DNA of 64,000 nucleotides, taken from the NCBI RefSeq assembly GCF_004010195.1, contig NC_057751.1, positions 15,484,241-15,548,240 on the forward strand, in the 5' to 3' direction. The notes under the pieces are model-generated. The model made no database searches. It was not told the origin of the DNA and worked only from the letters and a program-made list of their open reading frames with translations. How positions within the stretch are numbered: the stretch's first letter is position 1; each line of letters begins with the position of its first letter. The position numbers were made by a program, and so were the translations under genes. Source of the stretch: Chiloscyllium plagiosum (Eukaryota). Shown here piece after piece: positions 9,990 through 62,898 of this stretch.

Positions 9990-11065
9990 AAGGTCTCTCT
10001 ACACAACAACAGAAATTTGCTGGAGAAACTCAGCAGGTCTGGCAGTATCTGTGCAGAGAAAGCAGAGTCAATGTTTCGGGGTCCAGTGACTCTTCTTCAG
10101 AATTGATGGTCTTGGAAATGATGTTACATATGCTGAAGAGAGGAGTCATAGAATAGAATCATAGAACCCTTACAGTTGGAAAGAGACCACTCGGCCCACA
10201 CGACCCTCCAAAGACGATTCCAATCAAACCCAGTCAATTACTCTACCAATAACCCTCCACTTACCATGGTTAAGCAACCTAGCCTGCACATCCCTGGACA
10301 CTATGGATATTTAGCATGACCAATCCACCTAAGCTGCACATCTTTGAACCATGGGAGGAAACCAGAGCACCAGGTGAAAACCCACACACACACATGGGGA
10401 AAACATGCAAACTTCACACAGATAGTCAGCCAAGGCTGGAATTGAACCTGGGCCCCTGGCACTGTGAGGCAGCTGTGCTAACCACAAAGTCACTGTGCAG
10501 TTCAAAGTGGGTGAAATGAGTAAGCAATCAGTGGAGAAAGAGAGAACAGCAGTTGGCAGACAAAGGGATGTATAATGGTGAACCAGGTAATAAGAAAAGC
10601 TGACAATAGGGATCATGAGTTGTGAAAATTGGTTGATTGTGACTACAAGTTCAGGAGTGTGGGAGTGGGTAAAAACACAGAAGAAGGTGTTTAGGCTGAA
10701 AGTTATTAAACTCGATACTGAGGCCAGAAGGTTGCAGGGTCCAAGCAGAAAATGACCTGCCATTCTTCCAGCTTACGTTGAGCCTTGCTGGAGCATTGCA
10801 GAAAGCCCAGAACAGAAATGCTGTCCAGGGAACACGGTAGTGTGTTGAAGTGGCAGGTAACTGGACGCTTGGGGTCATTTTTGTAGACAGAATGTAGGTG
10901 TTTCACAAAGCAGTCACCCAGTCTGTTTCGTCTCTTCAATGCAGAGGAGACCACACATTGCTGTGAACAGTGAATACAACAGACTACATTGAGTGAAGTG
11001 CAGGTAAATCACTGCTTCACCTGGAAGATGTGTCTGGGGCTTTGGATAGTGAGGAGGGAGGAAGT
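9990..11065 (-). mobile_element. Degenerate Penelope-like element (GIY-YIG endonuclease remnant and terminal repeat), interrupted by an HE1-type SINE
   Basis: ORF 10706..10954 RLGDCFVKHLHSV...PVTCHFN...KLEEWQVIFCL resembles the GIY-YIG ORF at 29098-29496; hammerhead-like motif at 10069-10100. Confidence 0.75.
10146..10497 (-). mobile_element. HE1-type tRNA-derived SINE
   Basis: Reverse complement of tggttagcacagctgcctcacag...ggttcaattcc (A/B boxes), central tgtgaagtttgcatgtt core, CR1-like tail. Confidence 0.85.
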
Positions 11066-11779
11066 AAACGGGCAGGGGTTACAGCTTCTGAAATGGCACT
11101 GCCCCATCAAACACTCCCAGGGAAGGTGCAGCACGGGGTTACAGATTACAGCACAATGGTAAAGGAACCAGAGTGAAGATGAGGCACAAGCAATGAACTG
11201 TGGTGATGTGAAAATCTCTGCCTGAAACAGTGATTTTCCCAAGGGAGAATACGAGATATCTGAAAAGGGAAAATTTGCAGGGATCTGAAGAAAGGGCAGG
11301 AGGATCGGATCTGTCACTCTTCCAAACAGCCAGCACAGGCACAGTGGGATGAACAGTCTCCATTTGTACTCTCTGATCCAGGCAACATGAATAATTTACA
11401 TGAGCAAGTGACAGAGCAAGCTGTTAGGTACAAAACTACACAGTGTGCAAAATTTGATGTGAGAGTCATTTGGGTCTGGATCCTAAAGGGGGCAGTACTG
11501 TCCTTCATTCCATCACTTTTGCTTGCCTGATGCAGTGCTCTCCCCTTTGGTTCTGCTCTGCTCTTGGAAAAGTGGGAAACTTTAAGGGCATCACTTCTTT
11601 ATCTACTTGCTACTGCGTAAGGCACATTTTCACAGTCACGGAAAAGCCAAATGCCCCCTCAAGATATCTCTGCCAACTATTGAACAAACTGAGCAAGCCA
11701 AATAGAACAGGAAAAGCACTGCACCGGGTCAGGGATCAGCTGACGATCTAACTCGGTTCCAGCCATCCTCTCACTCTAC

Positions 11780-13640
11780 ACCCCTCGGAAACCTTCACCT
11801 TCTCTAACCTGACACCCTTCCGCAATGTCTGCAACATCCTCCAGTGACTTCCTCCAGTCCTACATCCCTTCAAGATCTATGTTGCCTCCTGCACCCTACA
11901 CCCCTCTGACATCTCTATCACCTTCTCCATCCTACACCCTTCTGGCAGTTCTGTGACCTCCTCACTCAACACCACTCTGAGATCTATGAACTCCTCCAGC
12001 CTTTCAATCCTCTGACATCTCTGACCTCCTCCACCCTACACCACTCAAACATCTGTGAACTCCTCCAGTCCTGCAACCTCCAAGGTCTCTATGGCCTCCT
12101 GCAACCCTGCACCCCTCTGACATCTGTGACCTCCTCCGCCCTACGCCACTCCAAGATCTCTGTTCTCCTCCATCCTATGCCACTCGAGATCTCTGTGATC
12201 TCCTCTATCCTATGCTACTCCGAGATCTCTGTGATCTCCTCCATCCTGCACCACTCCGAGATCTCTGTGATCTCCTCCATCCTGCACCACTCTGAGATCT
12301 ATGAACTCCTCCAGTTCTGCAACCTCCAAGATCTCTATGACCTCCTGCAAACCTGCATCCCCAACATCTCTGTTATCGCCTTGGTCCTGCACCCCTCTGA
12401 GATCTGTTACATCCTCTAGCCCTGCACCCCTCCGAGATCTCTATGGCCTCCTCCAGCCCTGCACCCCTCCGAGATCTCTGTGACCTTCTCCAGGCATGCA
12501 CCCCGCCGAGATTGCTGTGACCTCCTCCAGCCCTGCACCCCTCTGAGATCTCTGTGACCTTCTCCAGGCATGCACCCCTCTGAGATCTCTGTGACCTCTT
12601 CCAGCTCTGCACCCCTCTGAGATCTCTGTGACCTCCGCCAGCCCTGCACCCCTCCGAGATCTCTGTGACCTCCTCTAGCCCTGTACCCCTCTGAGATCTC
12701 TGTGACCTCCTCTAGCCCTGTACCCCTCTGCGATCTCTGTGCCCTCCTCCAGCCCTGCACCCCTCCAAGATCTTTGTGACCTCCTCCAGCCCTGTACCCC
12801 TCTGAGATCTGTGACCTCCTCCAGCCCTGCACCCCCCTGATATCTCTGTTATCTCCTCGAGCCCTGCACCCCTCTGAGATCTCTGTTAACTCCTCCAGCC
12901 CTGCAGACCCCCTGAGATCTCTGTGGCCTCCTCCAGCCCTGCAGACCCCCTGAGATCTGTGACCTCCTCCAGCCATTTACCCCTCTGAGATCTCTGTGAC
13001 CTCCTCCAGCCCTACACACCTCCTGAGATCTCTGTGACCTCCTCCAGCTCTGCACCCCCCCCCGAGATCTCTGTGACCTCCTCCAGCCCTACACACCCCC
13101 TGAGATCTCTGTGACCTCCTCCAGCCCTTTACCCCTCTGAGATCTCTGTGACCTCCTCCAGCCCTGCACCCTCCCTCCCGAGATCTCTGTGACCTCCTCC
13201 AGCCCTACACACCTCCTGAGATCTCTGTGACCTCCTCCAGCCCTGCACACCCCCTGAGATCTCTGTGACCTCCTCCAGCCCTTTACCCCTCTGAGATCTC
13301 TGTGACCCCCTCCAGCCCTGCACCCTCCCTCCCGAGATCTCTGTGATCAGCTCTGCACCCCACTGAGATCTGTGACCTCCTCCAGGCGTGCACCTCTCTA
13401 AGATCTCCATAATCTCCTCCACCCTACACTACTCCGAGATCCCTGCAACTTCCTCCACCCTACACCACTCCGAGATCCCTGCAACTTCCTCCACCCTACA
13501 CCCTTCCGAGATATCTGTTCCTCCTCCAGCCCTGCACCCTTCCAAAATCTCTATAATCTCTTCCACCCTACACCTCTCTGAGATCTCTGTAGCCTCCTCC
13601 AGCCCTGCAACCGTCCGAGATCTCTCTCTCCTTGCACCCT
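11780..13640. repeat. Minisatellite, ~36-37 bp unit (gagatctctgtgacctcctccagccctgcacccctct), ~50 copies
   Basis: gagatc recurs at 12545, 12582 and 12619 (period 37); homogeneous centre, degenerate edges. Confidence 0.95.
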
Positions 13641-13661
13641 GTAAGGATACAGCTCACGTAC

Positions 13662-13842
13662 CAGAGAAGAAATGGGCCTTGAAACCTTTCTTGGAGACTG
13701 TGTTGTCTGATTTAAACTCTATCCTCATATTGTTGTACTGGGATGTGATCACCTCCGGCTTCTCTGCTCCGCAGAATTTGCCATGAAGCTTGGCGTCGGC
13801 GGAGAGGCCACTGCGGACTTCGACATAATCATATTTACAAAC
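13662..13842 (-). CDS. bmp1: BMP1 exon ~15: CUB3 end
   Basis: ttccag|...CTG|gtacg; [60 protein letters not shown]; 181 nt. Confidence 0.96.
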
Positions 13843-13916
13843 CTGGAAAGAAACGGATCACAGACCAATCAGATTGATACATCACTTACCACATCAATAG
13901 GTAGAATACAATATCA

Positions 13917-61459: not shown

Positions 61460-61810
61460 ATGCGTGTAACTGTGAAAGGCCAGCATTTGCTGCCCACTCT
61501 GAATTGCTCTTGAATTGACAGGCTTGCTTGGCCTTTTCAAAGGGCAATTAGGAGTTAACCATGTTTCTATGATCTGGAGCCACATGTAGGCCAGACCATG
61601 TAGGGAAGGCAGATTTGCAAATCAGATGCTCTATTTTTTAAATGACTATTATAGTTCTCATGGTCACAGTTACTGAAATTATATTTTTAACTCATCAATT
61701 GAACTAAAATTCCACTGTGGTGGGATTCAAGCCCATGTCCCCATAACATTAGCCCTGTCCTCTGGTCCAGCAGCATGCCCAGTGACACTACCACTACACC
61801 ACCAGCTTCC
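61460..61810 (-). mobile_element. tRNA-like SINE sharing the tail of the 1-482 LINE family (other copies ~4840-5125, 16850-17120(+), 23190-23500, 27580-27950, 35075-35330, 63250-63580)
   Basis: Recurrent ggccagcattt..gcccatcc..gcccttga..ccatttcagagggcagttaagagt..ggcagattt..gggatttgaaccc. Confidence 0.65.
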
Positions 61811-61955
61811 CAGTCAGAGAAGTTCCCTAATCACATTGAAGGTGTATCGAAGAAGTGAGGTGTAGCTTGTATTCATATAGCACCTTCTGGTCCTGCATCG
61901 GCACTTGATCCCACAACCCTCCGACTTAGAAGGAAGAGGCAGCAGCCACCCTTAC

Positions 61956-62134
61956 CTGGCTGGATGTTCTCCCTTACGATGGTCACATGGTGGTCCCGGT
62001 CAGGCCTCGTGTGCTCGTGCCAGAATCCAATGACGTGGCCCAGCTCGTGCACGACAATCCCAAATTTGTCGCAGTTCTTCCCGATGGAGATGGCCTGGGG
62101 TCCTCCACCTCTCCGACCCACATAGGAACAACAG
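61956..62134 (-). CDS. bmp1: BMP1 exon ~5: astacin catalytic zinc-binding motif
   Basis: ctacag|...CCAG|gtaag; encodes [59 protein letters not shown] (HExxHxxGxxH); 179 nt. Confidence 0.97.
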
Positions 62135-62699
62135 CTGTAGAGAAGCAAACCACACAGAGCCTTGTGAGAAATGGAAGGGGCCTTTCGTTTCTTGGTGGAC
62201 CAACAATATCTCTGCCAATTCTGAACAGTCCTCACCCCACCATGTCCCTCACCCTCAGTGCTACCGCTACCATTTGGACGTGGGACATTGACACTGGGGA
62301 GGGCAGATGGCTAGCATCATATGACTTCAACTTAAGATCAACCCCAAAATTTGTCCAATCGTCCTTTCCCAATCTATTAATACACTGCTCCCATGCTAAC
62401 AGCACGGAAAAGAATTTAAGCAACAATTCTACTCCAACTCCCCATGCCCCCAGCATGACACAAAGCCCCACTTTTCAAGGAGCTGATAGGGGCTGAAGGA
62501 AGTAGAGGCAAAGGGAGGGGAGGAAATGGGAAAAGAGGAGGAAATGGTTCAAATGACATTCTGAACAGAACATTTCCACTCCTATAGGCCCTGGCAGGTC
62601 AGCATTTACATTTTGAGTCCTCCCTTGGCTGTTAAGATGTGAGGTGGGACTCTAATCCAGAGCTCAGGGCTCAGAGCCAGGAACATTACCTGGGTGCAC

Positions 62700-62898
62700 G
62701 TTTCTCCCCAGCTCACTCCCCTCCCATTTATTCCCAGCTCCCTCGTACACACTCCTCCGCCCCCACAATTCCTGATGAAGGGCTTATGGCTGAAACATCA
62801 ATTTTTCCTGCTCCTTGGATGCTGCCAAACTTGCTGTGCTTTTCCAGCACCACACCTGTTGACTCTGATCTCCAGCATCAGCAGTCTGCACTTTCTTC
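62700..62898 (+). mobile_element. Penelope-like terminal fragment with hammerhead-like core
   Basis: CTGATGAagggcttatggctGAAACATC at 62772-62799; same tail as 29660-29750. Confidence 0.72.

Follow-up and report, generated by a model that had tools for sequence, protein, structure and literature searches.

Minimal hammerhead motifs of Penelope-like elements in the introns of a tolloid-type gene of the shark Chiloscyllium plagiosum

The window analyzed here, a 64,000-nt stretch of the Chiloscyllium plagiosum genome (contig NC_057751.1 of assembly GCF_004010195.1, positions 15,484,241 to 15,548,240), carries exons of a tolloid-type gene and, between them, recurrent short motifs resembling hammerhead ribozymes. 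Our analysis makes it highly probable that these motifs are minimal hammerhead ribozyme (min-HHR) folds lying in the pseudo-long terminal repeats (pLTRs) of several families of Penelope-like elements (PLEs), and that the window copies are short, 5′-truncated and mostly decayed, likely inactive passengers. Hammerheads of this kind are already published for PLEs (PMC4209133); the present data concern a further host, a very high copy number and a set of mostly dead copies in the window. No publication on shark PLE hammerheads was found in a literature search whose coverage stopped short of some supplements, which may list shark motifs.

Recurrence and architecture of the motif

The original prediction, made from the letters of the window, had proposed a recurring motif at eleven sites. 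Inspection found the motif or a decayed form of it at all eleven, and nhmmer searches with family profiles derived from other copies in the genome matched each of them (E 6e-8 to 1e-32) but nothing in a reversed-sample control. A strict descriptor, consisting of the core, a stem II of at least 2 pairs, a palindromic stem III and UH, with no demand placed on stem I, returned 42 motifs from 571,142 evenly spaced sampled bases, as against 1 from the reversed sequence and 0–3 from ten dinucleotide shuffles. Over 1,147,269 bases (120 stretches, all on large contigs) the count was 75 against 2 reversed, or 65 per Mb (bootstrap 48–85), two of the 75 (L075 and L243) looking like chance matches that were kept in the count. 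The same bases contain 389 family-profile members (339 per Mb), and one exact 30-base pattern of the commonest family, F1, occurs 48,069 times in the 3.56-Gb genome and not once in the reversed control. Recurrence of the motif is not due to chance. Extrapolated from the sample rather than counted, the genome-wide estimates are ~230,000 strict motifs and ~1.2 million family members. The Rfam check that had also been proposed was run and gave no gathering-score match in the window and no hammerhead up to E 10 at four loci with intact copies; because Rfam misses even intact copies, this check is uninformative.

Profile assignment placed the window sites in four families, a fifth, F3, being found only elsewhere in the genome (Table 1). 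At least three sub-families with varied stem II had been recognized earlier: the idea that structure is kept while sequence changes holds, and the number of families becomes four in the window and five overall. Per-column counts over all sampled copies showed that the family majorities of F1–F5 keep C3-U4-G5-A6-N7-G8-A9 / G12-A13-A14, together with A15.1-U16.1 and H17, N7 being the sole variable core position. The intact core that had been predicted is therefore present, partly by construction, since family seeds were chosen on the core. Stem I provides an independent test, because it entered neither the descriptor nor the seed patterns. At least 2 contiguous stem I pairs were found in 59 of the 75 strict matches, compared with about 10 that we estimate by chance. 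Stems I, II and III all differ in sequence yet keep their pairing across the five families, which is the covariation that had been looked for; F1 and F4 are related, so that five families are not five independent events.

Table 1. Hammerhead families: window sites (by profile) and majority stem sequences
Family	Window sites	Stem II	Stem III palindrome	First three stem I pairs
F1	26253, 28550, 29665, 44098, 50032, 62772; 13983 by best score	GGGC/GCCC	ACGT	C-G/U-A/U.U
F2	24854	GGAGC/GCTCC	AGCT	C-G/A-U/C-G
F3		GTC/GAC with longer insert	ACGT	A-U/C-G/G-C
F4	10069, 51195	GGGTC/GACCY	ACGT	U-A/U-A/G-C
F5	8070	2-bp	AAGCTT	C-G/U-A/G-C

Two details of the earlier description need amending. The stem III palindrome was given as ACGT, which holds for three of the families and not for F2 and F5, and cleavage was expected after GUC, whereas the predicted triplet varies by family (GUC, CUA, GUY, GUU or UUY). 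An extra base follows A9 in 71 of the 75 strict matches and is absent in F5, an old family with a 5-bp stem I, a 2-bp stem II and a 6-nt palindromic stem III. The G10.1-C11.1 pair of stem II is present, matching the published min-HHR.

The likeness to the min-HHRs of metazoan PLE pLTRs (PMC4209133) extends to the type I core without loop 3, the palindromic 15.2–16.2 positions, the extra base between 9 and 10.1, G10.1-C11.1 and the short helix I, as well as to the presence of many consensus families per genome, mostly as single motifs from truncated PLEs, and of opposite-strand pairs 100–700 bp apart. The two sets differ in abundance, the ~230,000 strict motifs extrapolated here comparing with 4,000 in the coelacanth and 9,000 in Xenopus obtained there with a different descriptor, and in stem II, which is 2–5 bp here and 7–8 bp in the Schistosoma motifs. 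The host lineage of the present copies is not named in the sections and two supplements of that work that were covered.

The Penelope-like carrier

The F1 motif lies ~150–250 nt downstream of an open reading frame (ORF) for a reverse transcriptase (RT), a Cys-linker and a GIY-YIG endonuclease (EN). One sampled locus (L054) has a 424-aa frame that combines RT motifs, a CX4CxxC linker and GIY-YIG and that stops ~150 nt before the motif; Pfam scored RVT_1 at 29.9 bits on a second locus (L048) and GIY-YIG at E 4e-4 on a third (L045). A same-strand F1 3′ end was found ~3 kb from the N-terminal piece in 19 of 20 candidates, one being partial. A search of the PDB sequences with the RT piece gave 0 matches. 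EN remnants also lie upstream of the F2, F3 and F4 hammerheads, the F2 match being weak, and a CX2-5CxxC linker separates RT and EN in both F1 and F4. The earlier identification of the motifs as minimal type-I hammerheads of PLEs with a palindromic stem III is supported.

The manner of insertion agrees with such a carrier. Upstream homology lengths form a continuum reaching the GIY-YIG sequence in F1–F4, as in nested 5′ truncation. The 3′ ends are bimodal, ~37 nt apart, corresponding to the optional PLE tail, and target duplications of 11–15 bp flank 6 of the 9 window elements tested. A head-to-head partner lies within 1.5 kb of 222 of the 389 sampled copies, while same-strand pairs of the same family within that distance number only 4 among the 75 strict motifs. 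At one locus (L105:2150–2620, minus strand), two intact F1 hammerheads separated by 334 nt form a partial tandem, within an apparent 13–14 bp target duplication. The spacer consists of a pLTR plus the 5′ sequence of the next unit rather than a fixed monomer, and the tandem may represent a natural substrate for dimer cleavage.

Neptune-type EN+ PLEs (PMC8557442) share with these elements the RT, the CX2-5CxxC linker and the C-terminal GIY-YIG, as well as the heavy 5′ truncation, the inverted truncated copy at the 5′ end, the 30–40 bp tail at one end only and the hammerhead near the 3′ end. F1 and F4 are provisionally assigned to this clade by the linker motif alone, rather than by a tree; the EN match of F2 is weak, and F5 lacks one. 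F3 may be Poseidon-like, as its motifs suggest.

Several observations weigh against this assignment of fold and carrier. No ORF or EN link was found for F5. All 20 near-full-length candidates have assembly gaps of 1.5–2.4 kb, none has a 5′ pLTR of its own subfamily, and a complete pLTR-ORF-pLTR unit was seen in 0 of the 20. Stem I is weakest in the commonest family, F1, which has only 2 contiguous pairs, then a U.U mismatch and one pair (four pairs occur in a minor F1 variant). In nearest-neighbour folding the active dimer was not the predicted minimum-energy fold in any of 5 cases, and the natural tandem at L105 folds in a shifted, inactive register. The folding result is compatible with the low activity described in PMC4209133 and the protein dependence reported for an element from Anolis (PMC11167929), but is no evidence of activity. 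No intact full ORF was obtained, the longest open frames being mostly runs of N or a tandemly repeated piece in L045. That locus has, at 2580–4955 on the minus strand, a 792-aa open frame made up mostly of one piece repeated in tandem between the PLE N-terminus and GIY-YIG; it represents either an internal amplification or an assembly artefact.

5′ ends, RNA and the role of the fold

Mapping of the 5′ ends placed 91 of 167 F1 copies within −15 to +12 of C3, with 20 further inside, 53 further upstream and 3 unplaced; 39 of 76 F2 copies and 35 of 60 F4 copies start within 15 nt upstream of the motif. Only 2 of the 167 F1 copies start exactly at the cut site. Because copies mostly start at the 5′ edge of the motif and not at the cut site, the template is likely to have been uncut RNA. 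TATAWA occurs 36–40 nt upstream in 37 of 87 F2 copies, 51–55 nt upstream in 10 of 15 F3 copies and at −50 to −41 in 9 of 38 F5 copies.

The RNA reads examined make up ~2% of a poly(A) single-cell run from a related organism. Those of F1 derived from both strands, and neither their starts nor their ends piled up, a weak test of cleavage, the products of which would be too short for a poly(A) library. F2 reads were sense by about five to one (depth 2156 versus 444), and an A-run 12 or 15 nt past the F2 AATAAA was present in 1,145 of 3,054 aligned F2 reads; no such A-run appeared among the listed loose ends of a contig run set alongside as comparison. The hexamer is AATAAA in 56 of 123 F2 copies and ATTAAA in 29. 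The polyadenylated F2 reads cross the predicted cut and are therefore uncut, and since they reach upstream of the predicted start they represent read-through RNAs ending in the repeat. The F2 hammerhead is flanked by a likely start signal on one side and a working poly(A) signal on the other, and this layout gives a hint of how the short pieces arise.

On the main reading, the fold of the parent elements would have been selected to cut as a dimer through the palindromic stem III, when one RNA holds two pLTRs, and this cleavage would probably be protein-assisted. The element RNA likely starts just upstream of the hammerhead. RT would begin internally, 90–125 nt downstream, a mode of initiation documented for the Anolis element, and run off the 5′ end of the uncut template to yield the abundant stubs of hammerhead plus tail. 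Priming from both strands of one break, followed by microhomology joining, would produce the head-to-head palindromes. Once inserted, the copies decay like their flanks, CpG decay striking G12 and the stem III palindrome. Going further, we tentatively propose, at less than even probability, that the pLTRs act in the manner of retroviral LTRs in which the hammerhead takes the place of the R region, in the order promoter, RNA start, hammerhead and poly(A) signal, and that the roughly one million stubs represent run-off cDNAs of the uncut 5′ end that became integrated.

The run-off model finds parallels in the Anolis Poseidon element PAc, where the hammerhead likewise lies at the pLTR-ORF junction, uncut RNA is the main template, two RT start sites set the tail, and both DNA strands are cut and extended (PMC11167929). 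PAc has been characterized biochemically whereas the present elements are known from sequence; a further difference is that the ATG of the F1 stem II does not open the long frame and is missing in one subfamily.

Other results speak against the proposed transcription start. A strict TATA was not found in F1 or F4 copies (the D. virilis promoter is TATA-less and internal according to PMC2377424), a cap-derived G was not found at the 5′ ends of stubs (5 of 29), and the polyadenylated F2 reads extend past the predicted start. The mapping itself is imprecise: chance adds 1–6 nt, and for old copies the upstream length obtained by ungapped extension is too short. Stalling of RT at the fold could explain the 5′ pile-up just as well.

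If the LTR-like proposal were true, each RNA would carry one hammerhead at either end, and so a dimer partner in cis. Many host transcripts would acquire working poly(A) sites from F2 stubs, one of them possibly in an intron of the bmp1/tolloid gene, and no other material would serve better than a genome with ~200,000 intact hammerheads for testing the role of the PLE hammerhead, which PMC8557442 and PMC11167929 call an open question. The usefulness of the material lies in its scale and layout: the five families that covary, the identical young copies in their tens of thousands, the sharp 5′ boundary and the used poly(A) site of F2 supply concrete constructs and predictions.

It is also conceivable, if somewhat unlikely, that the fold has been retained for something other than cutting, such as protein binding, dimerisation or an RT stop at the RNA 5′ end, and cleaves rarely or never in vivo. 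Copies beginning at the 5′ edge of the motif rather than at the cut, RNA reads that span the cut site without a pile-up of ends and the weak stem I of F1 would all be expected in that case, as would the Anolis data, in which mutation of the hammerhead leaves insertion in vitro unchanged and the cut coincides with neither the start nor the end of any read (PMC11167929). However, the five families conserve every catalytic core position and the rule for the cut triplet even as their stems covary, the Anolis motif does cut in the presence of protein (PMC11167929), and cut fragments would have escaped a poly(A) library.

A genomic footprint of in vivo cleavage, left by a minority of copies that start exactly at the scissile bond, seems unlikely. 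Among 30,240 exact tails passed through a three-base flank filter, 76 copies start at the cut, compared with 24 at +2 and 21 at −2, and the inverted arm of the window stub at ~44 kb does so too. Of the 76, however, 44 share one flank, and the remaining 32 are near the controls. Moreover, 16 of 30 inspected copies carry one recurrent inversion junction with a 2-nt microhomology, which results from stem I complementarity, and 3 of the 30 are single-base insertions in intact copies. An unbiased sample had no peak at the cut.

On another view, which is close to the "retrozyme-like" derivatives of the original prediction and which we regard as very improbable, the copies would be non-autonomous retrozymes. 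These are short units without coding sequence, arranged in tandem, which are cleaved into monomers, made circular and inserted again. Most copies are indeed short and non-coding, with ORF sequence within 600 nt upstream of only 9 of 108 sampled F1 matches, and two intact motifs do lie in partial tandem at L105. A preprint (10.64898/2026.07.22.740005) derives retrozymes from pLTRs and reports some in one chondrichthyan. The non-LTR retrozymes described there share the type I hammerhead, the pLTR ancestry and the lack of coding sequence. They are defined, however, as tandem arrays with a hammerhead per unit, whereas in the window the copies stand singly or head to head and their 5′ ends are nested. 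The continuum of upstream lengths into the ORF, the L105 spacer, the rarity of same-strand pairs and the failure of copies to begin at the cut site all argue against retrozymes, and no hammerhead tandem array was seen among the 20 largest direct-repeat families listed for the window. The copies are accounted for instead as nested 5′-truncated ends of coding PLEs, and the earlier label is not supported.

Copies in the window and the host gene

The elements identified in the window are listed in Table 2. The strict descriptor accepts only 1 of the 11 copies, that at 29665 (+), which lies antisense to the host gene. The GIY-YIG remnant upstream of it has 150 scored genomic matches, 149 others at 65–78% identity; its frame gave E 0.079 against Pfam GIY-YIG, below the cut-off, and two other EN frames gave nothing relevant. 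Per-column counts indicated that the copies have not preserved the core any better than the tail, and that CpG positions, including G12, are the most decayed. The window copies are likely to be inactive passengers in the introns of the host gene, as judged from their letters.

Table 2. PLE-derived features of the window (positions of the whole stretch; sense and antisense refer to the host gene)
Feature	Position	Strand	Remarks
F5 relic	8030..8131	+	TATA-like box ~8034; decayed core
F4 PLE 3′ end	10002..11100	-	Cys-linker and GIY-YIG remnant ~10.7-11.1 kb (tblastn E 6e-20); sense
F4 hammerhead	10100-10069	-	stem III broken
Repeat interrupting F4 element 10002..11100	~10.25-10.5 kb		
F1/F4-type stub	13917..14013	-	C3-U4 missing; ~70 nt from splice acceptor; sense
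Its target duplication	13906-13916 / 14014-14024		11 bp
F2 pLTR piece	24792..24920	-	TATAAA 24917, hammerhead 24878-24850, AATAAA 24840, then GU-rich stretch; sense
Head-to-head F1 stub	26137..26347	.	near-perfect hairpin, ~-165 kcal/mol; long tail on single arm
Motif in stub	26253-26280	+	G5 to A
Additional inverted arm	26157-26253	-	by profile
Its target duplication	26123-26137 / 26344-26358 (flanking 26137..26347)		15 bp
Head-to-head insertion of two 5′-truncated F1 3′ ends	28459..29752	.	each arm: GIY-YIG remnant, 3′ region, hammerhead
Its target duplication	28442-28456 / 29745-29759		15 bp
F1 hammerhead relic	28548..28575	-	G5 and A6 lost, cut-site deletion; sense
F1 GIY-YIG remnant	29122..29442	+	~220 nt upstream of 29665 motif
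F1 hammerhead	29665..29692	+	G10.1-U11.1 wobble, GUU triplet, 2-bp stem I; antisense
Decayed F1/F4-type stub, additional to the original list	41118..41190	-	
Head-to-head F1 stub	44004..44185	.	inverted arm starts at cut site
Motif in stub	44098-44125	+	U4 and C11.1 changed
Additional inverted arm	44018-44095	-	by profile
Its target duplication	43989-44003 / 44186-44200 (flanking 44004..44185)		exact 15 bp
F1 stub	49968..50157	-	motif 50032-50059: G12 to A (CpG decay), weakened stem II; sense
Its target duplication	49956-49968 / 50159-50171		13 bp
F4 stub	51190..51288	+	G5 lost, insertion within motif
F1 tail-only stub without hammerhead, additional to the original list	54416..54471 (profile match 54422-54471)	+	14-bp target duplication
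F1 stub with long tail	62650..62899	+	motif 62772-62799: CUGAUGA/GAAA core intact; stems I, II, III broken

The minus strand carries exons of astacin, CUB and EGF type between ~62.2 kb and 6.1 kb of the window, and all motifs lie outside the exons found. BMP1 scored above TLL1 on two exons (65.2 versus 59.9 and 74.5 versus 71.4 bits) and tied with it on a third, with TLL2 not among the matches. The location in introns that had been claimed is supported, while the naming of the tolloid gene as bmp1 is likely but not proven. The minus-strand copies would be transcribed in sense with the pre-mRNA, as had also been stated. That some of these sense copies function, cutting or regulating the bmp1/tolloid pre-mRNA, is extremely improbable: five listed copies lie on the gene's strand (10069, 13983, 24854, 28550 and 50032), and that at 24854 retains both core and AATAAA, but each has a lesion in core or stem III (G12 in 50032, G5-A6 in 28550, C3-U4 in 13983, the stem III palindrome in 10069 and 24854) that predicts inactivity, the sole strict copy is antisense, and the core has fared no better than the tail.

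Head-to-head stubs place long near-perfect hairpins in pre-mRNAs. The palindromes at 26137–26347 and 44004–44185 form hairpins of 80–95 bp on either strand, and the insertion at 28459–29752 contributes a 394-nt arm pair at 81%, foldable in the pre-mRNA on either strand. Such hairpins are likely substrates for A-to-I editing or double-stranded RNA pathways.

The F2 copy on the host strand keeps its AATAAA and a GU-rich stretch (24840–24800, minus strand), and the hexamer at 24840, a signal at which RNA reads of the related organism are polyadenylated, may provide a poly(A) site in the intron that separates the exons at ~28.2 and 23.9 kb. CCAAT-like and TATAAA boxes lie upstream of the F5 relic, at 8000–8045 on the plus strand.

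ARAGORN found no tRNA in the window. There is a run of N at 44870–45266, and broken LINE-type (long interspersed element) fragments with RT and endonuclease matches lie at 44300–45700 and 57800–61400. Two long intronic minisatellites occupy 11800–13630 and 30850–31700, with units of 36–37 nt and 22–23 nt, respectively; the second adjoins a CUB exon. A dispersed repeat family, presumably SINE-like (short interspersed element), has copies at 10247–10497, 14695–14952, 18435–18636, 24331–24681, 36676–36866, 54815–54985 and 59620–59871, the first of which interrupts the F4 element. Elsewhere in the genome, a tandem array (G000:C16:42817618-42817933, six matches) with a period of ~47 nt is made of units that correspond to the F1 tail from the cut site.

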